Positions 55 through 54,420 are shown, counted from the first letter of the stretch. The stretch: 64,000 nt of DNA from Cyanophora paradoxa CCMP329 (GCA_004431415.1 QPMI01000056.1:1-64000), one strand, 5' to 3'. The notes: a model not told the origin generated them from the sequence alone. Translations and numbers: made by a program.

Positions 55-1700
55 ACCGTGGGACGGAGCGCCGCCTCCCTCGTCGGGCCGCCCACCGCAT
101 ACCACGCTCTCAGAACGGCCTGCAAAACGGAAGTTTGCGAGCGGAGGGCCTACCTTGCCGGCTGCTAGTGGACGTTTACTCCCTAGCCCGTTTCCGGACG
201 GCAGTATACGCACAGGTCGCAAGGGCGCTGCGGACGAGTGCCCGGCCCGCCCAGCCCCCTAGCGCCGTTCCTCCTCCGGGACAGCGCGCCGCCGCCCTCG
301 CCGGGCTGCCCACCGTATACCACGCTCTCAGAACGGCCTGCGCCGCGACATTTTACTTCCCGATCGTGGCGGCGCGGCGGCGGGGGCGAGCGGGGCGCCT
401 ACCTCACCGGCTGCTAGTGGACGTTTACTTCCCAGGTCGTTTCCGGACGGCGGTATACGCACAGGTCGCAAGGGCGCTGCGGACGAGTGCCCGGCCCGCC
501 CAGCCCCCTAGCGCCGTTCCTCCTCCGGGACAGCGCGCCGCCGCCCTCGCCGGGCTGCCCACCGTATACCACGCTCTCGGAACGGCCCGCGCCACGATAT
601 TTTACTTTCCGATCGTGGCGGCGCGGCGTCGGGGGGCGAGCGGGGCGACCTCGCCGGCTGCCAGTGGACGTTTACTTCCCAGCCCGTTTCCGGACGTTGG
701 TATACGCACAGGTCGCAAGGGCGCTGCGGACGAGTGCCCGGCCCGCCCCGCCCCCTAGCGCCGTTCCGCCTCCGGGACAGCGCGCCGCCGCCCTCGCCGG
801 GCTGCCCACCGTATACCACGCTCTCAGAACGGCCCGCGCCACGACATTTTACTTTCCGATCGCGGCGGCGCGGCGGCGGGGGGGCGAGCGGGGCGACCTC
901 GCCGGCTGCCAGTGGACGTTTACTTCCCAGGTCGTTTCCGGACGGCGGTATACGCACAGGTCGCAAGGGCGCTGCGGACGAGTGCCCGGTCCGCCCCGCC
1001 CCCTAGCGCCGTTCCTCCTGCGGGACAGCGCGCCGCCGCCCTCGCCGGGCTGCCCACCGTATACCACGCTCTCAGAACGGCCTGCGCCGCGACATTTTAC
1101 TTCCCGATCGTGGCGGCGCGGCGGCGGGGGCGAGCGGGGCGCCTACCTCACCGGCTGCTAGTGGACGTTTACTTCCCAGGTCGTTTCCGGACGGCGGTAT
1201 ACGCACAGGTCGCAAGGGCGCTGCGGACGAGTGCCCGGTCCGCCCCGCCCCCTAGCGCCGTTCCTCCTCCGGGACAGCGCGCCGCCGCCCTCGCCGGGCT
1301 GCCCGCCGTATACCACGCTCTCAGAACGGCCTGCGCCGCGACATTTTACTTTCCGATCGCGGCGGCGCGGCGGCGGGGGCGAGCGGGGCGCCTACCTCAC
1401 CGGCTGCTAGTGGACGTTTACTTCCCAGCCCGTTTCCGGACGTTGGTATACGCACAGGTCGCAAGGGCGCTGCGGACGAGTGCCCGGTCCGCCCAGCCCC
1501 CTAGCGCCGTTCCTCCTCCGGGACAGCGCGCCGCCGCCCTCGCCGGGCTGCCCACCGTATACAACGCTCTCAGAACGGCCTGCGCCGCGACATTTTACTT
1601 TCCGATCGCGGCGGCGCGGCGGCGGGGGGCGAGCGGGGCGACCTCGCCGGCTGCTAGTGGACGTTTACTTCCCAGGTCGTTTCCGGACGGCGTTTTACGC
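55..1700. repeat. Tandem repeat array, ~248-bp unit, ~6.3 near-identical copies plus a degenerate partial copy at the left
   Basis: The anchor GTGGACGTTTACT recurs at 168, 417, 664, 912, 1161, 1410 and 1657 (spacings 249, 247, 248, 249, 249, 247). Bases 55-150 match part of the unit (…ATACCACGCTCTCAGAACGGCC…). Confidence 0.97.
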
Positions 1701-1840
1701 ACCGCTATCTGATCCGCACCCGCGCGGATGAAACTAAATCCATAAATTGAACCGCTTGAATCGTCGAGCGCTCCTACAACTGCTCCGTCCCTCCCGCAAA
1801 CCCTCCCCCGCCATCCCCTCGCTCCACCACGGGGCTCGGC

Positions 1841-3899
1841 ATGGCCGGCCCCGCCCCCGCCCCCTCGGCGGCCGGCCCGTCGAGCGGGGCGGCCGGGGCG
1901 GACGATGCGGGGGCCGTCAGCCTGCCCAGCGAGGGCGCCCCCAACAACGACGAGGCCGTCCCGCCGCCCGAGCTCGAGTCGAGGCCCGCGCGCCTCGTCC
2001 TCCCCGTCTACTTTTCCGTCTGGAGGGACCCGGACGTCCGCTTCTGCCCCCCGTGCGCCCGCTGCTCGCGCGAGCGGTGCACGGCACCGTCCTTTGTCCT
2101 ACCGTGCGCGGCGCGCGCCCTTCTCGAGCGGACGGTCCAGACGAGCCTCGCCGCCGCCATCGACCAGCACCCGCGGGTCGCCGCGTCGGGCCTCGCCCGA
2201 GGGATCGTCTGCGCGACCTGCGCAATTGCGCTGGCGAGCCGGGGCGCCATCGAGGCGGGGCCGCCGCCCGCGCCGGCGCGCTGTGCGAGGGCGGGGACGA
2301 CTGCGACCACTCGAGCGGCCTCGTGCCGTGCAGCCGGATCGACGCATTCCTGTCCTACATGGGGTCCATCGTCGACGGCGGCGAGCCGAGATTCTGGACC
2401 GAGAGCCAGGCGTCGGCCCGCGGCGTGCTCGTCGCGGCGCAAAGGGCGCTGGACCGCGTCGCCGTTGCGCCGGCACCGGCGCTGCCGGCTCCCGCGGCGG
2501 AGGCCCCCGCCCCCGCGCCGCCTCCGCCACCGCCACCGCCGCCGCCGGCGGCCCCCCAGCCGCCCGCGCCCGAGGCCGTCCCCGTGGCCGGCCCGTCCGA
2601 GCCCCGCGCCGGACCGTCGACTCCCAGAAGGATGGCCCCCAAGAAGCGCGGTCGGGCGGCCGAGGCCGAGGAGCGCGACGAGCTCGAGGACGAGAAAGAG
2701 CCGGCGCCGGCGTCCAAGCGTCCCGCACGGGCCTGCGCGGCGCGAGACGGCGCGCAAAAGGACGAAGACGGTCGGGACGAGCCCGAGGCGCCCGAGACGG
2801 CCCCCAAGCGGCGCCGTAGCAAGTGGAAGTCCCCTTCGGACGAGCGGAAACCGTGGAAGTCGGACAAGCTCATTCGGGTTTGAACCCCCCAGCACCCCAA
2901 CCCCCGCCCCGCCCCGCCCCGCCCCCTCACCCGTCCCCAGGTCCTCTACGGAGCCTATGCGCGGAGGCTTCCCGACGACGAGGGCGGCTCGGTGGGCTCG
3001 GGGAGCGACGAGGACGGCGCGCCAGACGGCGAGTGGCTGGTCGCGCAGAGAAACGCCTGGGTCGAAGCGTTTGGGCACGTTCTCGAAGAGGAGGTGGAGG
3101 CCGAGGCCGCCGGAAACAAGGGAAAAGAGGCCGCCCACGCGCCCGACCCCGCCCAGAGCCACTGCCTGGAGGCGTACGAGCGCGGCCTTTGCAGCGGCCT
3201 CGACCCCGTCCTCGTCGGTGCGATCCCCTGCACGCCCCCACCCCGCCCTTCCCCTCCGGCGGCGAGCCGCCCGCGCAGGCCTCCGCCTCGACGCCGACGC
3301 GGCGGCGCGGGACGATCTCCTCGACCGAGCGATGGAGACGGGCCAGGCGCGGGCCCAGGTCGTGCTCCTGGTCGCGAGCGCCGTCCTCGCCGCCCACGAG
3401 CGGTACTCGCGCATCACGAAATCGAGGAGGTCGTGGGGCTACTACAGGGCCACAAACGTCGACCCCAAGTACGACTGCATCCTCGAAGGTGCGCGCGCCC
3501 CAACCGCCCCCGGCCCCGCCGACGCCGACGGCCCGCGGCGGGCGCGTTCCCGCGCGCGCAGCCGCCGGGATCCGGGTGGAAGACTCGAACGCCAAGGCGG
3601 CGGCCTACCTCCGGCTACGGAACCTGGGCCTCACCGTCCGGCGGTTTCCCGGCCTCGCCCGGGTGCAGGGCCACTGCGTGCACATTGGCGACTTTATCTC
3701 GTTCGTCCCGCTGCTGCTCAAGGCGGACGCCGAGGGCCTGGAGGAGATCCGGGAGCGGCTCGCCGCCGAGATCGAGGCGGTCGAGGGGTTCGAGATCGAG
3801 GAGGACCTGCTGGAGGAAAAGGCCGGAGCAGACGCGCGCGCCTCGGACGAGGGCGAGCTCGAGGAGGAGGAACAGGATGTGGAAGACGGCGGCGCATGA
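1841..3899 (+). CDS. Multi-exon hypothetical protein (paralog A): N-terminal Cys/His cluster, Pro-rich and charged linker, C-terminal helical domain, acidic tail
   Basis: ATG 1841. Manually joined exons: FCPPCARC…SFVLPC…SGLARGIVCATC…CDHSSGLVPCSRIDAFL…KLIR|VLYGAY…|GLRLDADAAARDD…|AAGIRVEDSNAKAAAYLRLRNLGLTVRRFPGLARV…GGA, TGA 3897-3899. Three GT-AG introns and one apparent frameshift near 2280. Confidence 0.7.
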
Positions 3900-4278
3900 G
3901 CTATCCGGCGCTAGCATGCGCTAAACCCCGCCCGGTGGATGGCCGGCTGCGGAGGATCGCGCATTGTAGACCGTCTCAACGCTCGGATAACACTGCAAAC
4001 AACGTATATGATGCGAATGAAACACGTGAAAGTGCCGCGGGCGACCGCCCGGGCCCGCGGCGCGCGGATCGAATCCGGAGACGGTCCCGTTTCCGGCTGC
4101 GCAGCGGCAAACGGACTTTGCTCTACGGAATATGTACTTGTGAGCGCGTATAACCCGTATTCCGTTGCGGTCGGTCGCGCCGCGCGCCGCGGCATCGGGA
4201 TCCTTAATCGTCGCGCCGAACGACTAAACGTTGGGGGGGTACGCTCTCGTCATTCGGGGACCTCGCCGCACGGCCGCG

Positions 4279-6693
4279 ATGCCTCTGGAGAGCAACTCGT
4301 TCGGCGAAAAGGTGTTTCCCGTTGCCGAAGCGCTCGATGAGGCCGGGTGGATGGCCAGCTGCATCAACTGCGGCTTCGGGGCGGCGACGCTGCTCGTCTT
4401 GCCGTGCCCGTCCGAGAGACTGGACGATATGGAGCCCTCGCCGGCGAGGACGACAACGATGGCGAGGACGAGGCGACCGGCAGGTCGGCGCTGGATAGGT
4501 ACATTGGCAAGGCAAAGTTCCTCGACGGCTGCGGCGGAGCACTTCCGAGGACGGTAAGGGCCTCGGCGAGGAGTTTCGGGAGATCAGCAAAGCTCTGAAC
4601 TCCGGCCTCGCCGTGCGCTGCGCCTCTGTGCGTCGCCGAGGAGACGGGCAAAGGTGCGCAATCACAAAGGCCGGGTCGCGCGGCGAGGCCCCCCGCACGC
4701 TGCCGTCGCCGCCGATAGATGCTAGACGATGCCGCCGCGCTCCGAGCCCGCACGCGCGCGCCGACCTCGTGCCCCCGCATGCGCAGCAGGATCCTCGGAC
4801 GCGCCCGACGGTGCGGCAGCGCGCGCCCGCGCCACGCGCGCCGCCCACGCGCTTCATCCGCAGGTTACGTCAAGTGCAAGTATTGCCCCGACCACACGAC
4901 GTGGACGTCCGGACGCTCCAGCCCTCGGAGCGCCTGGAGGCGTTCTTGTGGGCGCGGCGCTCACCAGCAAGAGGCGCGAGAACGACTCAGGGAGAGCATC
5001 AAGAAGGTCGAAGAGGCGGAGAAAAAGACCAAGTTCGTGAGAGCGTTCACCGGCTTCTGCTTCAACGCGAGGTCGAGGTCCGGCGAGGTCCGCGCCCCAC
5101 CGGCGAGGCCGGACTTCGCCCGCCCCGCACCTCTGCGCGCCCTGATGGACCTCCTGGATCGCAGAGCGCCCGCGAACCAGCCTCGCGAAGAAGGGTGCGG
5201 CCCTCGCGGCGCGCTCCGATCGCAGCCATCCCGCCGCTCGATGATCCTTTCGATCCCGTCTGACCGCACCGCGTCAGGCAACAATAACGCAAAGGAGAGC
5301 AGCGCCGCGTTGGAGGCGGACAAGGCAAGCCGCTCCCAAGGACAAGGGCAGGGAGGTTTGAGATGCCCCGCGCCATCGATCGGGCGCCGCCCGAGCTCAC
5401 CGGCGGACAATCGCAGCGGCGGAGGCGAACAATGCGGAGGCGCAGAAGATACGCCGGCAACGGGACGCGGCTTGCGCACGCAGGAGCAGCGCAAACAGCC
5501 CGATCGGCTGAAGATGGACGAACAGCTGCCCCGTGGCAAGACCAGCAAATCCAAGAAGCGCTCCGGGCCCGGGGATGAGGCGACGGGCGACGAGTCCGGC
5601 GGGTCACCGCCCCCCAAGCGGGGCCGCGCCCCCGGCAAGGAGCACCCGCGCAGCGCCGATTCCGGCGACGAGGAGGGGGCGGGCGTCGCCTCCGCCGACC
5701 TTGGCCCGCCGGAGCTCGGCGACGACTCTGTCCTCGACGGGACGGACAAGAGCGAGGAGCGCCGGCGTGCCCTGCTGGACGACGCCCGCCTCCACAAGGT
5801 CCTCAAGTCGGCGTACACCCAGCCCGCCCCCGGCAGCGGAGCTCGGGGCCTCGAGCGCGAAGAAGAAGACGAAGAAGAATCCGGCGACGGGTCGCAGGGC
5901 GCGGAGGCGGGGCAGAGGGCGGCGGCCGGCGCACGAGGAGCTGCAGAAGTGCACCGATGACCTCCGAGCGGCGGGGACATCGCCGAGGTCGGCGCGCGCA
6001 TCGACGGCGCCGTTCTGCAGGCGCTGGAGGCCAGCTTCGCAAAGGCGGAGGACCAGCGAGTGCAGGCGTGCTTTCTCGTCTCGGCGGGCATCCTGCACCT
6101 CTGCGAGAGCCGCGCAAGGGCAGTACCTACAACCGGCGGACGGACACGCGCGGGAAGGCTTTGCCGCGTTCCAGTGGCCCAACGTGGAGAAGGAGGTGGA
6201 GGACAAGTTCGGCGCGGTGATGCGGGCGGGCCACTTCCCGGTCAACCAGCGGACGTTCAAGGTGTTCCTGAACGTCGGCGCCCTCGTCCGCGAGTTCCGC
6301 GGCTACGCCAACGTCGTCGGCCCCGCCCGCGCCCTGGAGCTCTTCCGCGCCCTCGCGCCGTCGCCAAGGCCACGGACGACGAGCTGCGCGCCCTCCACGA
6401 GAAGCTCGGGGCCGACGTGCCCGAGAACCTCTTCCCGTGTAGAGCGGACCCCCCGACCTCTTTCTCGACGCCCTGCCGCGTCTCCCCCATCCCCTCCATC
6501 GCCCTCGCGCCCCCTCGGCGCGGCGCCCCGCCGCATTCGTCTCGCTCCGAGCGCTAGCCCGAGCATCATTTTGCGCGCCGCTGCGGATGTAGAACGCCTC
6601 GGCGGCCGAGCGGCGCGTGTACAGTACATAATGAATATTGCAAAAATGCTTTCCGATGTCTCCGACATACGACGTCTAGATCTCTCTACGTAA
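4279..6693 (+). CDS. Multi-exon hypothetical protein (paralog B of 1841-3899); several frameshifts; 3' end uncertain (~6442 or 6693)
   Basis: ATG 4279 (MPLESNSF). Contains SCINC…LLVLPC…SGLAVRCA…CKYCPDH…ERLEAFL…RLHKVLKSAY…FKVFLNVGALVREFRGYANV…KATDDELRALHEKLG, collinear with paralog A. Confidence 0.6.
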
Positions 6694-7154
6694 GGGCGGG
6701 TCGGGAAGGGGCGCCGTGTATCATGGCCCAGGAGGAAGTGGTCGGGATCGGTAGGGCACGGCGAGCGGCGCAAAATGATGCTTATGCGCAAGGGCACTAC
6801 TCGTGCGAGGACCGACCCTTTGGCGGGGTCCGCGTCGGCGCGCCGGTCCCCGCCGGCCCGCGACGTTCGCCCGCATCCCCCTGGGTGCAAACACTCGGTG
6901 ATCAATGGCACAGTATACGTAGCTACCGACAATAGGGGCGCACCTCGGCCTCCCCCTTTAACTCGACGACGTTTCTCGCAGGGGGGAGCTCGGGGCGGTG
7001 CGACAAAAACGCCGCAGCACCGCCACCCGTGCGCCCGGCCTGGGAATAGGTTAGTTGGCGGATGAACCGAGAAAACAAGCGCGAGGCGCTGCGTTGCGCA
7101 CCGCCTGCCGGCCCCGAGAAATCCACTCCTCGGCCGCACTAGTAATAGTGCTGA

Positions 7155-10100
7155 TTATCGTTCCGGCTCGAGAGTTTCGAAGAGCGTGTGCATACTGAGG
7201 ATCTTATTCTCGACCTCCGCAATTGTGCATCCGAAGCCGCGCTTCGGCATCCATACGCCGCTCCATCGCCTCCAACGTGGGATATTCTGCTGGTCGCCGA
7301 TGTTCATCTGTTCGAGGCGCTTCACGACGCCTTTCATCGCCCTGTTGACTCCACGAACGCCGCCTCCGAGCCGATCACCTTTTTCGAGAGGGCTCCTGTT
7401 CGCTCCCGACCGACGCCCACGCCAGGCCCTTCTTGCGCGATTTCTCGTCCTCCTTTTTGCTCCGCGGAAGAGTCTCAGGGCCTCCGCGAGGTGTCTCGCC
7501 GCAGCTTGGGCGCGCGCGCTCCGCGGAGCTCCGCCGCCGTTCGAGGCGTCCGCGCCTCCGCCCCGGTCGCGCCGTCGGCGGGGCTTCACCAGCCGACGGC
7601 GGCGAGCCCGCGGGGGATCCACCTCCATTCGTTCCGCACCTCCGCCCGCGGTCGCGCCGGCCGGCGGGGCTCCACCGACGACGGCGAGCCGCCCGGCGGA
7701 TCCGCCGCATTCCTACGGCGGCCGTTTTGGCGGCTCCTCCTCCTCCTCTCCTCCTCCTCCTCGCACAGGTCGGCGGCCTTTTCGATGATCGAGTTCACGG
7801 TGCGGTAAGAACACCTGGTCCCTCGCCAAGTCCTCGGCAAATGACTTGATCTCGGCGTCGGAGCAGTCCCAACGTACGCGTAGTCGCCCGAGGCGACTCG
7901 GCCATGTCCACGCCGAACGACGCGTTCAACATCCTTCTCCGTGGGGTAGCCGAGCTCGATGCTGCGATCACGTTGAGCACCCGAGGTCGTCGCGCAATTG
8001 GGCTCGGGTTTGGAGGGCGCACTGCCGCGAGAATCGATCCACATGGCGCGGTCAAAAAGTCCTTGTTGTTCGTCCCGGCAGGACGAGAATTGGTTCTGAT
8101 TCCTCTTACGAACCCGTCATCTGCTGGAGAATGCTGCTCGCGGGTGTTTAGACGCTTCAAGATCGCCATTGGCGAGCGTGATGGCGAAAGAAGCGACCCG
8201 TTCTTGAGGACCGCGCGCGTCGTTGGAGCCCTGCTCGCGCCTCCGCGCCATGCTGTCGAGTTCGCTGGGAAAAGGGGCACCGACGAGCAGGGCCGAGTTC
8301 GGACGCCGGCATAATCTCGCGGGGCGCACTCGAAGAACACAATCGACGGGCCATGTTTCGCGCAGCGCAGAACATCGTCTTTGCCGTCGCCTCGGCGACG
8401 CCCGTCTGCGAGATTTTATCGACGGTTTGCGGCACGTCCGGCGAGTCCTGCAGCACCCATTGCTGAGGATGGTCCGCGCCGACACCAGGAAAAAGGTAGC
8501 TTGCACTCGGAGGCAATCGCCCGAGCGATCTCCGTTTTTCCAACGCCCTAAACGGGGGGCGGTTCGAGCGGATCACCGAGACATAAACCTCCCCCGGGGA
8601 GACGCACGGCGGTCCGTACAGCAAAATTCCCTTGCTCCCTCGCGCGTGCAGCCGCGGCAGTACTTCGTGCCCGGATCCATGAGTCGCTTGATTGCCTTTT
8701 GGCAAAAAGAACCTTGCTTTTTGTCACCTGCGGGGCGTTGGTGCACATGGTTATTTCGTTCGTGCACGAACGAGGTCGTCGATCTTCAGCTGATCGTATG
8801 TGCTCGGTCCTGTATCGTCTGTAGACGGCGGAAAGAACGGCTTGCGCGTCCTCGGTCCGCCCGCCGGCCTCCTTGATGACCTCGTCGTTGGAAGGCCCAC
8901 CCGCTTCCAGTACGCATCGTCAAAGTCTCCATGCTGCCCGCCCGACGCCTTTGCCGTGCCGGTGCCGCCGCCTCCCTGGTTGCGCGGGTTCCTGTACGAG
9001 CCGTCGGGGCGCCTGCTTCGCCCGCGTGCTCTTGCGCGCCCCCTCCTTGGTCGGGCCCCCGACCAGCTCGAGCCACGACTCGGGCTCGGTCTTCTGCTTC
9101 TCAGCGAGCTTTCGCTCGACCGCCCCACTGCGTCGCGAGCTACCGCCCTCCGTCTCGATGCCGAACTGAATTCCGTCCTTGGAGGATCTCGACGCGCGTT
9201 CTCGCTTTCGGGGTCTCGACTTTGATCCGGCTTCGTAGTGCTCCTCTGCGCGAGTCGAGGCGTTTGTTAATTCTTGCTACGCGCAGCAACCGCCCAAAGG
9301 CGCATGGTAAAGGCCCAGATGCTCGTTTTCTCGTCGAGCAGCTCCTCCGCGGGATCGTGGTGAACTCGTTGACAAAGAGGGCGCGGCGCGGCATCAGGCG
9401 GATGGTCTCCTCGTCGTCCTCGCGGAACCCGCGTTGGGATTGCGTGCTCGGCATTCTTGAGCAGGATGAGGACGATGGCGTCCGGCAACGGTTTCTTCGA
9501 GGTGCCCGACGCGGACCCGGGGAGCACTTTGTGCATAATCCCACGCGCCTTGAACACCCCACCAACGCCCGGCCCACCACAAAAGTAGGTCTGGTGGAGC
9601 ATGGTGTACTTGTTGCGGGGACCGGGTCCCTGGTAGAGAACGCAGATATTCTCGCGATGTCTCTGCGATCGAACGGGCGCGCAAATCGGCGCGTTGGCGC
9701 GCGGGCACGGTACCGGCGGGAACGCGGGCATTACTCACGAAAATTCTTTCGCTCGGGATCGTCGGATCGGGCTCCGTTGGTGGGGCGAGTTCGACCCAGT
9801 TCCCGCCGTCCTCCAAGATGCACGTCCTCGACACCGGGTCGTGCGTGTCCCACTTGTCCACATCTAAAAAGGTGTAGTGTTTGTCCACTTGGAACTGCCG
9901 GCGGAACTTTGCGTCCCGCTGACCCGCCTTAAGCTGTCCCGGCAGCTCCCCTTTTTCGCGGCCGCGCGATCGCGACTGCGCTCTTTCTGGAGGTCGGTGC
10001 GTAGTTATCCAATTCGCCGTGGAGATGCTCGAGGTAGCTCTCCAGCGCGAACGAGGCTTGAGTTCTGCACCGGCAAGGGGGGTAAAAATGCATTTCTTGA

Positions 10101-13100: not shown

Positions 13101-13138
13101 ATGTGGAGGTCTTTGAACTCGTCGGCGGCTTCCTGCAC
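7155..13138 (-). CDS. Large multi-exon protein (possibly two genes) with an N-terminal F-box-like domain; remainder unrecognised; frameshifted
   Basis: The N-terminus RLPYELIEKILQHLGLEDAFASRIFAVSKRLLSLIGKLHW is F-box-like. Protein-like exons bounded by GT..AG continue down-strand (RPEWELAEAA, EPLIEPEALSEELGK, VEDVALLGCAKGSVIIMLRL, RQFQVDKHYTFLDVDKWD, NKILSMHTLFETLEPER*). Continuity as one gene is not proven. Confidence 0.5.
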
Positions 13139-14015
13139 GCCGTGCAGGTGAAATTCCGTCAGGTTTTCAACCTTTCACGGGCGCATGCGCAAGTTCGACC
13201 GGCGCGCACGCGTTCTGCATTCAGCGCAACCGCCGGCGAATCCTCCGCAGCGGTCGACATCGAAGCTCAATTGCAAGGTCTGTGGTACGGGCGCACGTCG
13301 ACGTCACGGTACTGATATCGATTCCGCCGCGGCCGGGCCGGGCTATCGGACGCGTGGGGGCGGTAACGTACTACTGCAAATAGATCGCGTGCGTATGCGT
13401 ATGCAACAAGATCCACGTCGCCGCACGTCGCGGAGGCGGGCAAGTCCGATGTTGGCCCACCGTGGCACCTCGGGCTCGAGCTCCTGGGCTCGCTATAGCC
13501 GAGGAATCGCGCGGCTGCGCTTTGCTCTAGCTATAGGTCTATCGGCCGTTGGACGCTTGCGCTATGTGCCGGCGGGCCGGGCATGCGCACCGGTCCGCAC
13601 CACCGGCCTCGTGCGCGAGTCCCCGAATCGAAACGCCAGAGCCGGGAGGGCCTGCGATCCGGTGTATTGCTAAATTTCGTGCTAGAATCGCCCACGAAAC
13701 TTCGGCTGTGAGGCAAACACGCACTGCGGCGCGTGTTGCAATTGGCGGGGATGGGGTACACACACACACACAGCTCTTTGGCCCAGTGGAAGTTACCGTG
13801 CACCGTACATGGACGCTTGTCGCACGTGCATATGCATGCAGCCTAAAACTACGAGTACGATATAGTCGAAGCGCGCGCGAGTAGAGCGGGCCCGCAGCCG
13901 GAGACCAGGACGCGCCCGCCCGATCGACGAGCCATGCCACCGCGGACAAGGTACTCGCCAACTCGTGTAAGGCTTTGAGACATAAGAAAGTCGACAAATA
14001 AAAGGAAAAAGCTAA

Positions 14016-15766
14016 CTATGCTTCTAACTCAGTAAGGCCGCCTAGACTACCTGCTCCCCAGCGAAAGAAAGGCCGAGGCGCTCGGCGAGGGAAACGCCGC
14101 CCCTCACAATCCACCGCCTCGTCTCCGGCGGCAAGAGAACGTCGGCCTCGGGCGGCCACCCCGCCGCCGCCGCCGCCGCCGCCGCCGTGGGGACGCCAAG
14201 CCGCTCGGCGAGCGGAATCCCGCCCCGAACGAGGCGCGGCGCCTCCGGCGACGAGCGAGGGTCGTCCTCGGACGCCGCCTCCGAGAAGCAGGTCTCCGCC
14301 TCGACGGCCGCGGGCCCAGGGTCGGCGGATCGCCGGCGGGGACGTCGATCTCCACGGGCTCCGCGGCCGGCCGGCGCCCGCCCGACTTCGTCGTTTTCTT
14401 CTTCTTCTTCTTGCTCTTCTTCTTGCCATTCTTCTTCCTCCTCCTCGTGTTAAAGAGGGCGTCGCTGCGGCGGCGGCGGCGGATTCTGGGTGGCTTCAGC
14501 CACCACGCGCCGCCGGGGCCCGGCTCGAACGGCTCGAGCACGGCGTCCGGATGCGCATCCGCCGCCCCCGTCCGCGAGCCGGGCTCGCGCATGACCCAGA
14601 CCTGGGGCCGCTTGAGCTCCCGGGCCTCCACCCGCTTCGTGTGCGCCGACTTCGGGACCAGCTCGCGCGTCGGGAACTGGCAGAGCGTGTAGCTCTCGAG
14701 CTGGCGCAAGAGCTCGGGGAAGAAGCCATGTCCTGCGAGAGAAAGGTAAGATGAGGCCAAAAGGCGCCGGGCGCGCGGGCACACCGTAGCTGGAGACGAT
14801 GACCTGCGCGGGGGCGGGAACGGGGCGCACGTCCGCGGTCAGCGGCGGATGGCGCACGAGCGCGGCGGGACGGCGCCTGCAGAGCGCGAGACCGCGCACC
14901 TCCTGCTCGTGGTAGATCGCCACCGAGGCGCAGCAGCTGACGGTCTTCTTCGTGGTGTTGGCCGAGAAGTACGCATTCGCCCGCGATGGATCGGGATGCG
15001 CTGCGTTTATGAACCGGCCCAGAAAGTTCTCCAGCGCGCCGTGGACGTACGTGTCCTTGTCGATCATGTAGCAGTACCTGCAGGCCGGCGCGTCAGCGCC
15101 GGCGCCGGCGCGGCGAGGCGCTCCAACGCACAGCCATTCGCCCGTTTTCTGTATCTGCTCGATCTCGTACGGCTCAGGACTCCTCATCAAGATCCTGCGG
15201 GGGCGGCGGTCGGCGAGCAGCGCGCGACGGGCGGCGGACCGGCGCCGGCGCGCTGGGCACCCGTCGTAGAAAGTGATAAAGACCCGGGTGTTCGGGCCGA
15301 AGACCTCGACTTCTTCGGGGAGCTTCCCGAGCTCGGCGGCGGCCGCCAGCGCCTCGGGCTGCGCCACCGCGAACAGCCCCTCGCCTTTGCAGACGGTGGA
15401 CGGGCCGATGCGGAACTGATCGAACGTTAGAAGAAGGAAAACGAGGGGAAACCGTCGCGAGAACGGCCCCGACGCGCACCCCAGCCTCCGCAGGTGCTCC
15501 ACGCAGAACGGTGTCTTCCTCGTGGAGGCCAAGCACCCATCCCACCGGCACCGGCGCGGGCGCGTCGCGCGGGCTAGCCGCCTCCGGAGCGTTTCGAGCT
15601 GGCCGCGGTCGGCCTTCCGGAGGCGCTGAAGAAAGAGCTCGGTGGCCGTCCTAGGGTCCTGGGGCTCTTCGGCGGCCGCGGAATCCGCATCGAGAGGATG
15701 CGGACCGCAGCCGATCATCCACGGCGTCACTCGGTCCCATCCCTCGCCCTGCGGCTGCGTTGGCAT
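14016..15766 (-). CDS. SET-domain protein lysine methyltransferase with an N-terminal Cys/His finger and a Lys-rich C-terminal tail
   Basis: Spliced reading gives CRWDGC…FCVEHL, then RIGPSTVCKGEGLFA (SET motif I), F..NTRVFITFYDG, YCYMID…LGRFINAAHP…ANAYF, and IYHEQE|VIVSSYG (SET C-terminal motif). The tail contains RRRKKNGKKKSKKKKKK. Confidence 0.85.
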
Positions 15767-15845
15767 CGCCGACGGCGCCGTACCCTTCCGACCCGTACCC
15801 GGTGAGCACCGGAAGCGTCGCCCGGCGCGTCTATCGAACGCGGCT

Positions 15846-18450
15846 ATGGCATTTGACTACTGGGGAATCAACTTGGGCGTCCCAACGTCCGTTCTGGGCA
15901 TCTCGACGCCCATCGCCGATCTGACCGATGACGAAGTCGAGGATGCATTCCGGCGAACGATGAGCAGCCTCAAAGACCCTGCCGCGCTTCAGGTGCGCCC
16001 CCCGCGCGTCGCCCGCGCGCCCTCCGCGGTCACCTGCGCATGCGCCCGGCCTGACCGCGCGCCGCTGGCCACGGGCCGACTTGCGCAGGGCCCAAACTTC
16101 CGCCCGGATCCGCAGCAGCTGAATGAATGGTTTTCGACGCTTCGGCAAGCCGCCACGTTCGGTGCGGGCCCGGCCCGCCCCCGCGCTCCCGCCGGCGCCT
16201 CGGCGGATCCCGCGGCTCAATCGTGCTCGCGCCGCCGCGCGCAGCATACCGGGTGCTGATATCGCCGGCCGTTCGCGCCGAGATGGCCAAGCACGGCCCG
16301 CGCACGCGCCTCGTCGCGGACATCAACCACCTGGCCGCCGAGACGCCCGAAGCCGTTTGCGAGGGCTGCGGCGTCGACGAGAGGACGAGCGAGCCCCGGC
16401 ACGTCTTCCGGAGACGGCGTACATCCAGAGATGCCGGAAGAGCGACGCGACCGTGTTGACGGCCACCGTGCTGGGGAACGCCGGCCCGCTGTGCGTTCCG
16501 CGCGCCGCTCTCGGGCCGACCGGCGTCCACCTGGAGAACGCGCCCTCGAGGCAAGCGGTCCGCCTCCGTCGCCCCGCCGCGACGCCCCCCGCCGCCGCCG
16601 ACCGCGAGCCTCGTCCCATCGTCCCGCCGCCTGCTGCGGCCCTCGCCTCGCCATCCGAGCCCCCCGCCGCGGCCTCTGGCGCCGCCGCCGCCGCACCCCG
16701 CACCCGCCGCTCGGCCTCCGCCGCCGCCGACCCAAAGAACCCGCCGTCACCTCCCTCGGGCGAAGAGGCGGAGCCCCCCGCACTCGCCCACGCCGAGCCG
16801 TCCGGGTGCGGACTCTTCCTTTGCGCCTACTTATACCTCGTTCCGAGGCGCGCGCAGCGAGATCAAAGTCGGGAAGACCGCGTTCCGCGAACGCACGAGC
16901 CTCAACCAGCTGCGCTCCAAGCTGGGCCTCCCGCAGGTGCCGCCGCGCGTGGCGCTCGCCGAATTTCAGCTGGAGACGGCTCGCGAGTGCGCGAAACGGG
17001 GCATCGACATCTCGCACTGGTCCGCGGCCCCGCCGGCCCCTTGTCCTTTTGCAAATCACGACCGTGCCCGCGCGCAGCCAAAACGCTCCGAAACTGCTGC
17101 CCGAAGGCGAGACGGCGCCGCCGGCAGAGGGCGACGGGTCTCCGAACTCGAAGCCGCCGGCGCCCGACAACGCTTCCAAACGGCCCAAGTGCGTGGGGGG
17201 CGGTTGCATCCTCTGCGCGAGTCCGCCGTGATCGCTACCGCAGGCGAAAGGCCGCCGAAATCGGCGCTTCGAGCAGCTCGTCGCCCGAGGAAGCCCCCGC
17301 GCCGTGCGCCCGCCCTTTTTCCGGACCGCCGCGCCGCCGGAGCTCGCGCTGACGTATCGTCCGAGCAGGAAACCGCTCGAGGACCGCAAGGAGTCCGATG
17401 AGACCGAGTCGCTCTGGACGTCGATCAAGGAGGAGGACGTCGTCGACCCGGCCGCCGCGTGCGAGATCTTTCGAACGAAACCTCGCCCAATATAGATGCT
17501 CGGCGCTGATGCGGGCTTTTTCAGGAAGACGGAGTGGGAGTCTTCGTCGTTCTTCCAGAAGAGCAGAGCGGCGCTGATCAAGTTCCTCCGGAAGCACTTT
17601 CCCACAACGGAACGACTCGCGGTGCTCAACCAGCTCTCCCTCGAAGGGATCAGGGCCCTCGTCGTTCTTCTGGCCCGCCGGCTTGGCTTCCCCGAGATCG
17701 ATGCGTGCGTCTCGGGGGCTTTGGGATCTCCCCCCGGGCGCCGCCGACGCATAGTCCGCAGCGAAAATCAAGTCGGGTCGAAGTTCTGGACGACTTCGGA
17801 AAGGACCGACGACGTCCTCGCCGATATGATGTGCGTTTTAGCTCCGCTGTGCCGGAACGTTCTCACGGGCCTCGTTTTGCATATATTCGCAGAAAGAATG
17901 CCATCGCGAAAGCGCAGGAGCAGGCGGTGGCCAGCATCAAGAAGGAACCCGGCATCACGCAGCCGGCGGAGCCGGGGCCCGGCGAGGAGCGCAAGGAGGA
18001 CGGCCCGCCCGCAACACCCGCGGCGTCCACATCTCCGCCAAAAGCTGCAGCGTGAGCGCGCCGTGCGGGGCTCTCCCACTCCGCCGCTTTCCGTCCAACC
18101 CGCGTTTCTTTGCGCGGCAGGTCCACGCCGAAGAGCAACGCCGGCGCCGGCGCCTCGGGCGAGAAGGATGAACAAGGCCCCCCGGGTCCGCAGCGCCCTT
18201 CCCTCTCCCGACCCTCCCGCTGCCCCAGGCGCCACCTGGCGATCCTTTGTGCCGACAGAGCGCCCCTCGAAACGCGTGGTTTCTGAGGTGGAGGAGGCCC
18301 TGCTGCGGAGAATTGAGGTCGGCGTTTCCCCGGCCCCACCGTTTTAACGTCATTTTAACGTGAATCCAGGCGGAGACAAACCCGGAGAAGAAGCGGAAAC
18401 TCGAGACCTTGCTCGAACAGACGCGAGAGATGGAGACAGGCAAGGAATAG
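15846..18450 (+). CDS. Multi-exon protein with an N-terminal J-domain-like (DnaJ-like) region carrying RPD in place of HPD
   Basis: ATG 15846. Spliced N-terminus SVLGISTPIADLTDDEVEDAFRRTMSSLKDPAALQ|GPNFRPDPQQLNEWFSTLRQAATF|AYRVLISPAVRAEM follows the J-domain pattern (VLG…E…AF/YR…xPD…F..L..AY.VL..P..R). Last exon AETNPEKKRKLE…GKE, TAG 18448-18450. Could be two genes. Confidence 0.55.
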
Positions 18451-18592
18451 ACCCCGCTCGCGGGCGTATCCGCCGCGGAAGCAGAATAGAGCGCGCGCGC
18501 GCTCGCGTGGCGGGGGGCGGACTGGATGCGGATGCTCTAGATCCGGTCCGCCTCCCCGCGCCCCAGCCACATTCGAGCTGTCGTAATTATTA

Positions 18593-20809
18593 ATGATGAC
18601 CGCCAGCCGACCGCTCGGGCCGAAAGCTGCTTGGGGGGGGGGTGGGGGTCGCGAGGGGCGCCGGCGGGGGACTGGGGGCTACGGGCGGGGCCGAGGCCGC
18701 CTTGTGCACGCCATATTCGCGACCGCTGAGGGCTCTGGACGGATTCCGAACCGAACTTTCTCCTCGCGATCGCTCGAGCGCGCAGATCGTCTGGTGTCCT
18801 CGGCGTCCGGGGCAAGGTCCGAGTACTGCTTCGGACGGCCCGGCCGGTCCGTGTACTCGACCGGTCCGCACCCTCGCCCCCTCCCCCTCGCGCCCGGGCC
18901 CCTGACGGGCGCCCGCAGAACCCTTCAGGTGCGCCGAGCTCGTCGCGACGAGGCGGTACGGTTACCGTTCCTACGGTCCCGTCCGCTGGAGGGGTCAGAT
19001 CCTGCACGTGCGCTCCGGGCCCGCGCGGGGCGCCCTCCTCCATGCGCGCCCGCCCCGACGGCCCCGCCCGCAGCTCCCGTTCGGCATCGTCCCCGAGGGC
19101 ATGACGGGCCCGCCGGGCCGGATGGCGGAGCACTTTGGCTCGAAGCTGGGGCTGAGCCCGCCGCCCGTTGACCTGCTCGCCCTCCGCGCGATCGAGGGGG
19201 CCCTGCTCGGGCGCCCGCACGGCCCGCCGCACGCCTCGGCGCTGGCGGCGTGGGCCACGTCCCCCGAGCGGCACGTCGCGCTCCCCTGCAACCTCCTCGG
19301 GGGCGGCGTCGACTCGCGTTACATCCGGAGGCAGCGGGCCGAGGTGCCGCCGCCGCCCCCGCCCCGCGCCGCCCTCTCACGCGCGCGCCGCAGGGCAAGT
19401 TCGCCGCCTACGTCGCGCCGCTCCCGCCGGGCTGCTCCACGGAGGACGAGGCGCGGCACGACTACGTCCTGGACCGCGGGGCGCAGACGTGCATCTCCCT
19501 GAGCGGCGTCCTCGCCGCCGTCCACCTTCCCGGCCTCTTCCGCGAGGGCGCCGGGATCGAGCGGGTCGCCGCCGCCGTCGCCTGCGCCTCCACGGCCTTC
19601 AACTTTTCCGTCCGCCGCAGCACCATGTACAGCGAGGCCCGGGTGCGGGCCGCCGTCCTCTTTCCGCCCGCGGCCGCGACGTGAACGCCGAGGCAGGACA
19701 AGAAGCTGCTCGACGAGGCGCGCGCGGCGGCCGAGGCGGCGCTCCGGACGGGACGGCTCGACGTGATGCGGGAGAAGCTCGCCGGGCGACCCGGGGGCAA
19801 GAGGAAGGCGCCCGCGCCGCCCCCGCGCCTCGCAGCGGCGCGCCCGCCGCGGAGGGCTGCCGCGGGCAAGGCCGATAAATCGAAAAAGCGCGGGCCGCGG
19901 ATCGCCACCGGCTTCCAACGAACCCAGGGCGCGTCTGTCCCGATTCCGGTCCGCGGCCCGCGCCCCGCCCCGGCCGCCCGCGCGGGCGAGCCGACCCGCT
20001 CTCCCGCGCGCAGATCTCTCTCAACCCGCAGTACGGCTCGGACACGAACGCGAACCGGCGGCTGCACCTCGCGAACGGGTACTTTGCCGGTGTGCTCGAG
20101 TACCTGTTCCCGGCCCTCTGCGCCTTTGACGTCAAGGCCGGCTGCGACATGGCGGAGATCGCGCTTCGCCTTCTCGATCGGCAACCGTACAATTACGGTC
20201 CGCCATCGCGCGCCGTCCCGCCCTCTCGGGCCCGACGCGGGTTGCGGGCGCGCAGGGTTCTGGTCGATGCAATGGATGAATCCGCCGGAAACGCGAGCTC
20301 GTTTTAAAAATAACCCACCTTTGGATGCCGACACTTTTTCTCCAGGATCGCGACGTCCCACCGGGACAAGAACGACGCGCAAGAGGCCTACGCCGCTCTC
20401 GTCTACTTTCACCCCGACGGCGCCCGGGACCGGCGGCTGCATCGTCTCCGTTTCCCCACCCTCGGCATCTCGCTCGACGTGCGACACGGGGACGTCGTCT
20501 TTATCCGGGTGAGCGCCCCGGGGCCCCCGCCGGCTCTCTGCCCCCGTCTTCCCGGCCGACGACGACCCGATGCGCCTCCAGGGGCACCTGCTCGAGCACG
20601 AGGTCGTGGTGGACGGGGAGACGGATCCCAGGTTCGATGCTTTGGCGGGCGCCCCCCCCCGGCCGCCCTGATCCCGCTACCGCACGCGCAGGTATTGCAT
20701 CGTGTTTACCCTCGGCAAGGACCTCAAAGTCGACGCCGATCCCGCCGGCGAGGCGAGAAAGGGTGTGTCTGCCTCGTCCGACAGCGACTCTTCGAATTCG
20801 GAAGGCTAG
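18593..20809 (+). CDS. TET/JBP-family 2-oxoglutarate/Fe(II)-dependent dioxygenase (predicted nucleic-acid base oxidase)
   Basis: Spliced C-terminus: FWSMQWMNPPET|IATSHRDKNDAQEAYAALVYF…LRFPTLGISLDVRHGDVVFIR|GHLLEHEV…DP R|YCIVF…*. HxD starts at 20359, the distal His is at 20597, the 2OG-binding Arg spans a splice junction, and the stop is 20807-20809. Start position is approximate. Confidence 0.85.
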
Positions 20810-20889
20810 CTCCGCTGTGTAGTTTGACTTTTAAAAATGCAATAACATCAAAAATAATTAGCTTCAAGGATGGGAAGCTTGTGGCATGT

Positions 20890-21675
20890 CACTGATCATG
20901 ATCATGAGTCACTTTAACGTTTATAGCACGTATACTAGTTAAAATAATCATATCGATATCAACATGGCATGTCAATGAGTCACTAATTAATATAAGTAAT
21001 GATCGGATCATGATCGCTTGAGCTCGGCTGCATACAGCTGCAGCTGCAGCGTAGTATCATGATCATAATTATATAATCATGACTCAGTGAATTCGAAAGC
21101 CTTCAATTGAAGGCTTTATAAATAACTTAGTAAGGCATATAGATATCATAGTATCATGATCATAATCATGATACTATTAAAGCCTTCAAGGCTTCAAGGC
21201 CTTACTCAAATCATAGTATCATGATCATGATCATAATCATGAATCATGAAAGCCTTCAAGGCTTCAAGGCCTCAGTCATGTATATATTATGATAGATATC
21301 ATGCATGATCATAGTATCATGATCATGATCACGAAAATCTTCATGATCAAGGCCGGGCTAGAACTTTTGGAAGGCATTTTGTCATATAGGCAGACTTTTG
21401 GATATAGCTATCATAGTATCATGATCATGATAATCATCATGAATTCGAAAGCCTTCAAGGCTCCAAGACCTTGGGCCTAGCTATAGTACCTTATCATGAA
21501 AGCCTAATTATATATAAGTATACGCGTGCCGCAGTGCGTATGCAACCTATCATAGTATAAGCTTCAAAATTCGAATTCATGATACGTTACATGTACATGT
21601 ACATATCCGCGGCCGATGATCCGATGATCGATATCATGATATCGGTCATGATCATCAAAGTACTAGTACTAGTAC
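20890..21675. repeat. AT-rich low-complexity spacer built from ATCATGAT palindromes and AAGCCTTCAAGGC repeats
   Basis: Repeated TATCATAGTATCATGATCAT and GAAAGCCTTCAAGGCTTCAAGGCC blocks, with a sharp GC drop relative to both flanks. Confidence 0.85.
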
Positions 21676-21677
21676 TA

Positions 21678-22037
21678 CCCCGCACTAGGCCCGTAGTAGG
21701 TCCTTTGCGAGCGAGCTGTGGTGCAAACGTTTATTTCGACAGACGGAGAGGGTTGGGAACTTAGCCCGCCCCCGCCGCCGCGCCCCGCCCTCGAGGTAAG
21801 ATTGCGCTCTTCGGCTCGTTCGAAAAGTGTCTTAGGCGGACGGTCCCGACGGACGGGCCGGCGGGAGCGCAGTGCCGCCGGGCCGCAGCGCTCGTCTGCC
21901 GCCCCCCTCCCCCGCGCCCGAAGGCCCCGCACTAGGTCCTTTGCGAGCGAGCTGTGGTGCAAACGTTTATTTCGACAGACGGAGAGGGTTGGGAACTTAG
22001 CCCGGCCCCCGCCGCCGCGCCCAGCCCTTGAGGTACG
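21678..22037. repeat. Direct repeat, ~236-bp period (~1.5 copies)
   Basis: TCCTTTGCGAGCGAGCTGTGGTGCAAACGTTTATTTCGACAGACGGAGAGGGTTGGGAACTTAGCCC occurs at 21701 and 21937. Confidence 0.9.
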
Positions 22038-23510
22038 AGGTGATCGTAGCCGGCGGCGATGAAAGACTCGTGCACCAGGGCCCTGCGAGGGCCCGGGCGC
22101 GGGCTGGGGGCCCCGGATCCGCGGGACCGCCCGGCGGCGCGAGGCAGGAGGCGCACCTGTACGCGAGACGGGCCCCGCGGGTGCCGGGCGTCCCTCTAGC
22201 GGCCCGCGGGAGCGCTGCGCGCGGGGCACTCGTTAGCTCGGGCGGATTCCGGGAGGGCGGGCGGGCCCGCCGTCGGCCGACGGTACAGCTTTGCACCTGG
22301 GGTCGGCACGTCGCACTCTTGCGCAGCGCTGCTCGTCGGCGGCGACATCCTGCAGCCGGGCGCGGCGCGGGCCGGGGATGCCGCGCGCGCGAGGCGGACT
22401 AGGCGCCGCGGACGACGGCGATGGCCAGCGATCCCTCCGTGCAATCTCTGCCCCAAGAGAGCATAGCTAAGCATCTACGGGGCGCGCGGCGGGGCGGGGG
22501 CGGGAGCGCACCACTTGCGCGGGGCCGGGTCTCGGCCTAGGCCCGCCGGACCGCGACCACGGGCGTGAAAGAGGTTCCCGGGCCCCACCACGACCCGCGG
22601 GAGGCCTCCTTGCACGCCGCCGGGCCGGCCACGCCGCTCGATCGATCCGAGCAGAGACGGGCGGCCCACCGGCACCGCCCCCGACTCGGGAGGGAGCTAA
22701 AGAGCGCGGAGCCGCACGGGCGGCGCGGCAGACGGCGCGCGCGGGTCGCGAGGTCCTGGGGCGCCCTGCGGACGGGTGAGCGACGGCAGACGCTTAGAAC
22801 CGATTGCCGTACGAACCCCGGTTGCATTGGGCGCAAACTTAACGAGAATTTACGCGGCGCCGCTCGCCCCGCAGAGTTTAGTATGTACCCCCTCGACGGA
22901 GGCTGCCGCGGAGCGAGGCGAGCGGCGCTCGGATGCGGCCCCCGCGCGGCGTCGAGGGACTAGAAATCGTGCGCTACGCCGTACTTGCGAGCGCTGGAGC
23001 GCTCCGCGCGCGCGTTTCGGTGCGCGAGGGGCGCGGATCAAATTGCTCTCTTCCGCGGACGGCGCGACGTAGCGCGAGCCCGTGCAGCCGGAGAGGTCCA
23101 AAACCGGGATCCATACCGTGGGATCACTAGCAGCTCGTCGCCCACGCGCGCGCGGGGCCGCGCCGGGCGACCAGGCGCACTCCACCACGGGACCCTCTGA
23201 GAGGCCGAGACGCCCGATCGCGGGCCGACGAGCGGCTCCATAAGGTGGGGCGTGCACTACGATACCGCACGCCGCCGCGCCGGGCCGGACGGCGCCGGGT
23301 CGGTCCGCACTAGGTCCCGGGCCCCGGGTTCGGGGCATCGGCCTGACGGTGCCGCGCGGTACCGGCCCACGAATACGATAGCGTGCACTCTACACGAGAG
23401 ATTCCGGGAGCGGGTACCGAGCCGAGCGCGTTTTCCTTCTAGCCAGGAGTCATTTTACCAGAGTATAACGCGATCGAGCTATATTGTTAGCCTAAGTACT
23501 TAGAGGCTAG

Positions 23511-25374: not shown

Positions 25375-25779
25375 GACTGAGACTAGCCGGTCCAGGCGAG
25401 ACTGCCGGCGCGGGCTGCAGCCGAATGCCAAGCCATCGCCGACCGGGCGGCGAGGGCTGCTGGCGTTCGCAGAAGAGGAAGTGCTTTCCGAAGTTCGAAT
25501 TCCCTAGTATCCCTACGTTTTGTAATTCTACCCGACCGAGCAGATGCCATGATGGTCAGGTGAAACCACCGGGGTGATCTGCCCGGCTCTTTCAGCTCGA
25601 TGTTAGCTGCACAGGAAGCGTCGGAGGCGCGAAGTGGATTCTATAGCTGCTATTAGCTCGACGGAGGAGATTGATCGTCTATGGCCGCTTCGCGGCGTCG
25701 TCGCGGTATCCCCCGCTTGTCCCGTCCCCCCGACCCTAGCTAACGTTCGCTTTCGAATTCGAAATTCGAATTTCCCGCG

Positions 25780-54397: not shown

Positions 54398-54420
54398 CAT
54401 ATATATATATATATATATAT
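54398..54420. repeat. (AT)n microsatellite
   Basis: Directly visible. Confidence 0.9.

Follow-up and report, generated by a model that had tools for sequence, protein, structure and literature searches.

A duplicated multigene block with a TET/JBP-type dioxygenase in Cyanophora paradoxa as a candidate large DNA transposon

The left part of a 64,000-nucleotide stretch of Cyanophora paradoxa CCMP329 DNA (QPMI01000056.1:1-64000, hereafter the window) raises the question of whether a group of six unusual genes, among them a TET/JBP-type dioxygenase and a SET-like gene, moves through the genome as a unit. A first-pass annotation had proposed a giant mobile element bounded by positions 55 and 22037. 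The evidence points instead to a block of at least 1703-23462, which is probably a large, recently duplicated, low-copy DNA transposon with predicted anti-silencing cargo. Two near-identical copies of this block of at least 22 kb with its six genes, and relatives spread over about a dozen contigs, are the reason to regard it as a likely jumping element.

Extent and copies of the block

In contigs from two short-read DNA runs, X1 and X2, positions 1703-23462 have about twice the depth of single-copy contigs, with a sharp branch at 23462/3. Taking contig depth as a proxy and not as a copy number, single contigs along the block gave 126.4, 150.2, 126.8, 144.3 and 113 in X1 and 58.4, 71.5, 56.7, 89.4 and 56.6 in X2, against 63.4 and 35.1, respectively, just past 23462; the drop falls between the contig covering 21975-23462 (113/56.6) and the one starting at 23433 (63.4/35.1). 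The X1 background has a median depth of 61.7 (n=39 other X1 contigs in the same tables), and four short GC-rich pieces within the block show low X2 depth (37.4, 23.8, 41.9 and 42.7). Each long short-read piece over the block carries only 0-4 other letters, indicating that two near-identical copies merge into single contigs. Gene models g15670/g15671/g15673 (tig00000042) and g18529/g18531 (tig00000215) match the exons of gene C, the SET-like gene and the TET gene of the window in the same order. In word-limited searches the SET-like and F-box-AAA genes were found at the two near-identical loci only, while the diverged loci hold the TET gene, accompanied in two of them by the J-like gene. Repeated copies, collinear at the second locus, thus exist as the first-pass annotation had anticipated, and no ordinary host orthologues turned up for TET or SET.

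A sharp repeated boundary also exists, but it lies at 23462, 1.4 kb past the end first proposed. An F-box/LRR-like gene flanks the block, and the break comes about 55 bp beyond its stop codon; the paralogues of that gene within the window include no empty-site version spanning 23462. On the left side, short-read contigs reach only 37-38 nt left of 1703, the tandem array being what breaks them. This array, described earlier as a 248-bp repeat, was recovered at 137-1702 with units 92-99% alike, preceded, from about 60 on, by an incomplete and diverged unit, and the AT-rich spacer was likewise found (Table 1). As for the 236-bp repeat, the repetition is real, but it consists of a ~113-bp sequence present twice at that spacing, with no full 236-bp units; a shorter motif of this repeat occurs again at 23305. 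The genes do lie between the array and the right repeat, but these arrays need not be the ends of the element: the block runs on to 23462 at the right, and no sequence is common to the two repeat zones. Considered as TIRs or LTRs, the left array and the right repeats were rejected because they share only GC-rich chance matches. No Rfam family was found within 1-25000, and the block shows no CpG depletion (o/e 1.2-1.3).

Table 1. Features of the block, with positions counted from the first letter of the window
Feature	Position	Strand	Description
Tandem array	60..1702	.	247-249-bp units, 6.3 copies plus diverged partial unit; within or at left edge of block
Gene A	1841..3899	+	~620 aa; N-terminal Cys cluster, Pro-rich linker, C-terminal region akin to gene B; 3 GT-AG introns
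Gene B	4279..6442	+	Protein of no assigned family; paralogue of A via C-terminal half
Gene C	7155..13260	-	F-box, long uncharacterised middle, CDC48/p97-like AAA ATPase; C-terminus approximate
SET-like gene	14042..15767	-	Cys/His cluster, then GEGLFA, YDG, RFINAAH, VSSYG; basic C-terminal tail; spliced RNA-type contigs
Gene D	15846..18450	+	J-like helical N-terminus without HPD, CxxC region, C-terminal helical part of no known family
TET/JBP-type 2OG-Fe(II) dioxygenase	18596..20809	+	H407 codon 20359, D409, H462 codon 20597, R473 at last intron; start codon tentative
AT-rich spacer	20875..21680	.	Short palindromic words and imperfect 70-100-bp repeats; GC 0.37
Two ~113-bp direct repeats 236 bp apart	21690..22037	.	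Copies 21690-21801 and 21926-22037, 95% identity
Right subterminal region	22038..23462	.	From contig depth table; block end 23462, true end there or a few bases inside

Gene content and predicted functions

The six genes are genuine and intact, and the many frameshifts in the window are assembly errors. In this part the long-read assembly has many errors, 138 gaps in 11.6 kb, which contigs of the two short-read DNA runs reveal (57 and 81 (X1) against 1703-13300), and RNA-type contigs share most of the listed indels. The term RNA-type denotes runs guessed to be RNA, none of which is on record as such; spliced contigs of this kind are listed for four of the six genes. Introns and assembly indels also account for a Pfam scan of the raw window ORFs in which, among the expected domains, the F-box alone was recovered. 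The genes are as tightly packed as first described (gaps of 78-781 bp), the starts of the SET-like and TET genes lie 2.8 kb apart, in line with the 3 kb noted earlier, and short host-type introns interrupt genes A, B, C, SET and TET.

The TET/JBP assignment made for the last gene is firm at the level of sequence. The HxD-H-R residues (H407, D409, H462 and R473) are present in 9 of 9 complete family models, and are missing or cut off in five partial or degenerate ones. Pfam Tet_JBP (PF12851) is matched by 8 of 8 family models with scores below the gathering value of 34.9 bits (13.8 for the window copy and 20.6 for the best paralogue), which suggests a divergent TET/JBP branch. Among 1.84 billion proteins only three non-family matches were obtained, all of them Tet_JBP and one a Dichomitus JBP1/TET protein, and the hhalign comparison of the family with these three gave 98.8%. 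The atlas supports the same assignment (0.96; 211/256 features), two of its three top clusters being partly viral, where atlas taxa are, according to the tool's own note, no sign of gene transfer. Of two predicted structures of low confidence (pLDDT 34 and 40), the second suggests a DSBH at residues ~395-483; its best Foldseek rows are FTO and prolyl hydroxylases (E 0.006-0.02; VIA Z up to 6.4), and the lack of a TET entry among the matches listed is no evidence against TET. A PDB sequence search with the TET alignment gave no useful match and no sequence link to CMD1. N-terminal to the oxygenase part, the Cyanophora family has an extra conserved region of ~130 aa that matches nothing in Pfam.

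Models of this family lie on 12 contigs, the complete ones being 48-100% identical to the window copy; P0005 and P0006 form another near-identical pair, and the paralogue contigs show about twice the background depth (X1 101-126). Of the listed paralogue substitutions in TET exons, 19/39 are synonymous and none is a stop. RNA-type contigs over the gene carry mostly paralogue letters, and the window copy itself gives a weak signal: at 18962 it accounts for ~3 out of a depth of 24-32, and at 20422 for 5.8 out of 25.9 and 0 out of 17.6. In a tree of 14 TET rows, 8 of the 10 inner branches were unresolved.

SET domains are marked by the motifs GxGLFA, YxG, RFINHxCxPN and a C-terminal Tyr. The SET-like protein has GEGLFA at position 80, YDG at 119, RFINAAHPDP..AN at 163 and VSSYG at 204, with NA in the place where canonical SETs have NH, and its nearest atlas clusters are viral (0.93, 163 features; clusters 96-100% viruses). 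From motifs and atlas, a SET identity of an atypical kind is likely. The methyltransferase first proposed is upheld to that extent, but the NH is replaced, and the protein has no match in Pfam at E<=10 and none in the PDB sequence search.

Gene C does have the N-terminal F-box claimed for it (PF00646, E 0.0015, under the gathering score), but the AAA part had been overlooked: the gene encodes a fusion of ~1,600 aa that joins the F-box to a CDC48-like AAA ATPase (PF00004, E 3.6e-33 in the model of the second copy) with Walker A, Walker B and the SRH region. An RNA-type contig of 4,000 nt skips its introns, and its F-box region shows weak kinship (E 1e-5) with the expanded F-box family of the host in the window.

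The HPD motif is the mark of J-domain proteins. At this position the gene D homologues read FRPD, LGSP and LGSS, so that HPD is absent in 3 of 3, and none matches DnaJ in Pfam. In the two fused models P0004 and P0008, TET is immediately preceded by a gene D homologue (31-47% identical), and the D-TET pair is kept at 60-85% TET identity; RNA-type contigs of ~2.0 kb cover gene D.

Genes A and B, described at first as Cys-cluster paralogues, are indeed paralogous through their C-terminal halves (score 83, reached by 0/1000 shuffles, the best of which scored 60), but the N-terminal Cys clusters lend no support, as 299/500 shuffles reach their score. Gene B has a spliced transcript of ~2.0 kb (4246-6656) with five joints in two RNA-type runs, three of them as GT..AG. 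No long RNA piece appears for gene A among the matches listed; the protein matches nothing in Pfam or NCBIfam, and one PHROG match is weak (E 0.04).

Proposed transposition and its rivals

The idea of a giant mobile element gains from the multiple copies, their collinearity and the sharp right end, but the window offers neither a transposase among its ORFs nor a TIR partner. Transposase, integrase, Rep/helicase and capsid domains, as well as the KDZ transposase and CxC domains, were absent from 125 window ORFs and from full-length models of gene C and the gene D homologues, genes A and B being scanned in pieces and the window starting at the left side of the block. Nowhere in the window does an inverted partner of the right-end 20-mer occur at <=3 mismatches. 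Helitrons end at the 3' side in CTRR with a hairpin. A Helitron was discarded, given no RepHel match and, for the right end only, folding of the last 100 nt no better than that of shuffles (z 0.55). CMCT elements (EnSpm, Plavaka and ESTA) have 5'-CA..TG-3' or TGT..ACA termini according to the available text of PMC12730594, whereas the shared sequence ends ...TTTTACCAGA at 23462 with neither TG nor ACA in its last bases, a comparison that takes the branch point to differ from the true end by a few bases at most. With no transposase, TIR, TSD or empty site seen, we infer transposition indirectly, and segmental duplication remains a rival.

Such a recent duplication, for example a subtelomeric one, would have copied a lineage-specific cluster that is immobile as a unit, the TET genes being ordinary paralogues or remnants of old elements. 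It would fit the missing hallmarks of transposition, the limit of two near-identical copies, the weak kinship of the gene C F-box with host genes and the ~35 Mb of this assembly that are duplicate features relative to an older one (PMC6704402, in its accessible part). Nevertheless, near-identical copies lie on different contigs in several TET subfamilies, the D-TET pair persists in diverged loci, the nearest outside relatives include a fungal TET/JBP protein of the transposon-linked kind, and the break just beyond the flanking stop codon is insertion-like, which together make this explanation unlikely.

Alternatively, the block might form the right-hand terminus of a larger endogenous element of viral type (a giant virus, or a Polinton-like or otherwise recombinase-driven element) with its core genes left of the window. 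The viral atlas neighbours of SET and, in part, of TET, the left end lying outside the view, and the giant-virus insertions in C. paradoxa found in the available text of PMC12344493 agree with this origin. It is nonetheless improbable: capsid, PolB, packaging ATPase and integrase are absent from the six genes, five of which have host-type introns, with several transcribed in the guessed-RNA runs, whereas the viral inserts of C. paradoxa are described there as methylated and rarely expressed. No relative was found in IMG/VR (scanned with TET, SET and an array word) or in phage records (SET), nor in JGI metagenomes (TET and a right-end word), and atlas taxa do not indicate gene transfer. Finally, that the two annotated copies are a single locus assembled twice could draw on the error-rich assembly and on protein sets identical save for model errors, but is very hard to sustain when short-read contigs from two runs, each from a separate study, independently show both the halved depth and the branch at precisely 23462/3, diverged paralogues are impossible as assembly doubles, and the organism is more likely haploid (PMC6704402, accessible part).

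The cargo of the DNA transposon favoured here would shield it from silencing by the CpG methylation of the host, which affects 32% of CpG, with a preference for repeats and silent genes (PMC12344493, available text; the block contigs are not named in its supplement text). The TET/JBP enzyme would oxidise 5-methylcytosine or another base on the element, keeping it transcribed; the SET-like protein may methylate a lysine, probably on chromatin; and the F-box-AAA fusion could recruit an SCF ligase and pull a ubiquitinated target, perhaps a repressor, off DNA in a p97-like manner. One of the genes A, B and D might confer sequence specificity, for which the tandem array is a conceivable target, like VANC in VANDAL elements, a step not favoured by the lack of enrichment of array words elsewhere in the block. 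The mover would be a transposase left of the window, one supplied in trans, or one too diverged to be recognised, as with DNA-1_cRei of Chlamydomonas. A bolder and rather doubtful proposal is a giant eukaryotic DNA element of a new class, in which a transposase of unrecognised type (A, B, D or left of the window) would be combined with a three-layer anti-silencing kit (DNA-base oxidase, lysine methyltransferase, and an F-box-AAA protein tagging and extracting host repressors) aimed at its own tandem array.

Relation to known elements

TET-carrying fungal DNA transposons were reportedly described by Iyer et al. in 2014. In the available text of PMC12730594, TET is found on 11 lineages of such transposons, of the KDZ (Kyakuja, Dileera, Zisupton), Plavaka, EnSpm, ESTA, hAT7, IS3EU, Harbinger and Helitron kinds. 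Like them, the Cyanophora block has multi-copy TET/JBP genes with HxD-H-R alongside other genes, and a Dichomitus TET/JBP is among its nearest outside matches; unlike them, it shows in the window no DDE transposase, RepHel or defined ends. KDZ transposons make a 7-8-bp target-site duplication. The same text records SET as cargo of Phytophthora HarbingerS and MuDR, with no TET partner described in that part, while the Cyanophora SET resembles small viral-type SET proteins. An F-box within a DNA transposon is likewise present in a Zisupton isoform (PMC12062965, available text), where it accompanies transposon domains such as CxC7; in gene C its fusion partner is a CDC48-like AAA ATPase. The VANDAL elements of Arabidopsis counter silencing through a factor of their own, VANC, whose targets often lie in tandem repeats (PMC5735166, in its accessible part), and can serve as a model for the array and for genes A, B and D; VANDALs, however, are Mu-like with a transposase, and the array words of Cyanophora are not enriched elsewhere in the block. 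Hence, TET- and SET-carrying transposons are each known, but the Cyanophora combination was not found in the openly accessible literature searched, which contained no paper on JBP/TET in Cyanophora nor one joining JBP, TET, SET domain, F-box and transposase.

The closest described case is DNA-1_cRei of Chlamydomonas reinhardtii, which carries CMD1 (10.1101/2022.06.16.496473, available text). Both are algal and large (18.4 kb there), with two copies, several expressed genes including TET/JBP, and no recognisable transposase. DNA-1_cRei has shown 67-bp TIRs, 8-bp TSDs and insertion polymorphism, and its named second domain is a kinase, against six genes in the Cyanophora block with SET-like, F-box-AAA and J-like members and a paralogue pair. 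If the reading as a transposon is true, TET cargo would extend from fungi and Chlamydomonas to glaucophytes, with a cargo richer than in described cases (DNA-base oxidase, SET-like enzyme and F-box-AAA fusion side by side). Because the alga is cultured and its repressive CpG methylome has been measured, existing methylome data should tell whether the element escapes methylation. This would be a second large algal TET block without recognisable transposase, whose dozen related loci offer by comparison a route to the mover enzyme of such elements, and the divergent Cyanophora TET family, like CMD1 before it, is a candidate for new base chemistry.

A duplicated block and its right end

The six tightly packed genes announced by the first-pass annotation indeed follow the tandem array, with intergenic gaps of 78-781 bp, in GC-rich, eukaryotic DNA with short introns whose exons match annotated Cyanophora paradoxa proteins letter for letter. 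The AT-rich spacer 3' of the TET gene was likewise recovered (GC 0.37), and the supposed 236-bp repeat proved to be two copies of a 113-bp repeat spaced 236 bp apart. Short palindromic words are also abundant in intergenic DNA outside the block (25600-26300, 32300-33000 and 44000-45600), so that the AT-rich spacer is not necessarily a hallmark of the element.

Features of the block and of the rest of the window
Feature	Position	Strand	Remarks
Tandem array	137-1702		period 247-249
Gene A	1841-3899	+
Gene B	4279-6442	+
Gene C	13260-7155	-
SET-like gene	15767-14042	-
Gene D	15846-18450	+
TET gene	about 18596-20809	+
Host F-box/LRR-like family	23517-25380	-
Host F-box/LRR-like family	28300-29400	-	degenerate
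Host F-box/LRR-like family	48308-50682	+
Large multi-exon membrane-protein gene	33950-43842	+	TmcB type; PF25474 E 5.7e-4
Degenerate LINE-like retroelement	54400-60480	+	long pyrimidine-rich tail, short A-run near 60468
Its reverse transcriptase	55760-56457		PF00078 E 6.5e-12

Short-read contigs assembled from two public DNA runs (X1 and X2), together with annotated proteins, served to establish how the block is copied. Along 1703-23462, single X1 contigs have depths of 113-150, the median of 39 other X1 contigs being 61.7 (35 of them below 85), and long X2 pieces have depths of 57-89; the contig leading from 23433 into the flank has 63.4 in X1 and 35.1 in X2. Four short GC-rich X2 pieces inside the block are lower (24-43), and contig depth is not a strict copy number. 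The block and flank contigs overlap by exactly 30 bases, that is, at a branch of the assembly graph, and therefore two sequences have everything in common as far as 23462 but diverge over at least the next 1.6 kb. Of the expected collinear copies with sharp ends, both the second collinear locus and a sharp right end at 23462 were found, but this end has neither an inverted partner in the window nor a hairpin. The annotation is in line with the duplication: tig00000042 carries C, SET and TET as neighbouring genes (g15670, g15671 and g15673) and tig00000215 carries SET and TET (g18529 and g18531). The break lies about 55 bp beyond the stop of the flanking F-box/LRR-like gene, whose RNA-type contigs extend 20-40 nt into the block. 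The CA..TG or TGT..ACA signature of CMCT elements (EnSpm, Plavaka, ESTA) is not present at this right end.

Raw reading frames look decayed, above all in genes B and C; this apparent decay is assembly error. Over 1703-13300 there are 57 and 81 gaps (X1; two DNA runs compared), with at most four other letters per piece, and RNA-type contigs have in common with DNA-run contigs 6 of the 12 indels listed for this stretch, as well as those at 14311 and 16407. Assembly indels amount to about 1.2 per 100 bp in 1703-13300, a density that makes gene models on the left of the contig unreliable, and are about tenfold fewer in 14454-23462. The RNA-type runs, which are RNA by guess only though their contigs skip introns, include listed spliced contigs over four genes (B, C, SET and D), and no long piece for gene A is among those listed. 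Over the TET gene they bear mostly paralogue letters, with a weak signal from the window copy.

The TET gene and its family

The assignment of a TET/JBP-type gene is firm at the sequence level, from its residues, protein-feature comparison (atlas) and profile matches. H407, D409, H462 and R473 are conserved in all nine complete family models, and the atlas score is 0.96, with 211 features in common. Pfam Tet_JBP is matched weakly by 8/8 scanned models (E 2.7e-4 to 0.1, under gathering score). Against 1.84 billion proteins, the family profile found 12 matches: seven Cyanophora models, two pieces of one contig and three outside proteins, all three Tet_JBP and one from Dichomitus squalens. Fold models are weak, the DSBH core alone being visible. 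A conserved extra region without Pfam match precedes the oxygenase part (18919-19343; residues ~35-160 of model P0003).

TET models lie on 12 contigs, three of them partial or degenerate, and complete models share 48-100% identity with the window TET. Two of the complete models, P0004 and P0008, are fused and have N-terminal halves matching gene D at 31-47%; the pairing of D with TET has therefore outlasted the divergence of TET to 85% and 60% identity. P0005 and P0006 form a further near-identical pair, and paralogue contigs have similarly raised X1 depths (101-126). Among the 40 paralogue substitutions listed, beyond which stand 108 further entries, 39 were classified: 19 synonymous, 20 not and none a stop, with 7/9 of those listed in the two oxygenase exons synonymous. 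In P0013 (tig00021434) the HxD motif is entirely absent, possibly because the copy is dead or the gene model faulty. SET and C were detected by word-limited searches only at the two near-identical loci, so that a family-wide kit is not implied.

The other five genes

The proposed SET methyltransferase retains four motifs in correct order, but has NA instead of NH and no match in Pfam or PDB; its atlas clusters are mostly viral SET (score 0.93), and its sequence likely encodes a SET fold. At 15310-15586, one contig reaches roughly double the background depth in each of the two DNA runs and also occurs in both RNA-type runs; it matches both sides, the shorter by only 23 letters, and is possibly a diverged SET paralogue. 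The predicted F-box stands at the N-terminus of gene C, which also bears a CDC48-like AAA domain; the model from the second copy (P0012, 1,647 aa) has AAA PF00004 at E 3.6e-33 and p97 as top PDB sequences. Its F-box region is weakly related to the host F-box/LRR-like members of the window. Its GSVIIML segment (~420-500, window ~11390-11140), without match in the Pfam scan of P0012, may resemble SEA or TRADD-N-like modules. Gene D has the J-like helices but lacks the HPD motif. Paralogy of A and B holds through their C-terminal halves (0/1000 shuffles reach the score), and neither has a convincing family match.

Nature of the element and known systems

The block is a real, intact, recently duplicated multi-gene unit with a firm TET/JBP gene, and is likely a mobile element. 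The pattern, in which several subfamilies have near-identical copies of recent origin, the cargo is conserved and one end is sharp, fits a low-copy DNA transposon family. A plain segmental duplication is improbable; that the block ends a larger virus-like element is slightly less likely again, and doubling by the assembly is scarcely credible. Domain scans found no transposase, integrase, Rep or capsid domain in the six genes. From its right end and the domains found in its genes, the block cannot be placed among KDZ (Kyakuja/Dileera/Zisupton), CMCT or Helitron elements. As a mobile element, it would use its TET enzyme to remove or alter the CpG methyl mark on itself; more tentatively, SET might write a lysine mark, the F-box-AAA protein might tag and extract a chromatin protein, and A, B or D might direct these activities, perhaps to the tandem array.

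In C. paradoxa, 32% of CpG is methylated, chiefly in repeats and silent genes (PMC12344493). TET/JBP genes occur on fungal DNA transposons belonging to 11 lineages; Phytophthora HarbingerS and MuDR carry SET genes (PMC12730594). Related literature includes PMC6704402, PMC10288648, PMC9940879, PMC8226300, PMC12062965, PMC5735166 and 10.64898/2026.08.24.746577. A search without most subscription papers and Repbase found no paper on TET/JBP in Cyanophora, nor any joining JBP, TET, SET domain, F-box and transposase. The cargo is unusual, and the engine of movement is unrecognised among the six genes. The closest known case is Chlamydomonas DNA-1_cRei, an 18.4-kb element in two copies, with four expressed genes including CMD1 and no recognisable transposase (bioRxiv 10.1101/2022.06.16.496473); TIRs and TSDs were demonstrated there, whereas the block is known here without its left end. 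In its mode of working, the block would resemble TET- or SET-carrying transposons.
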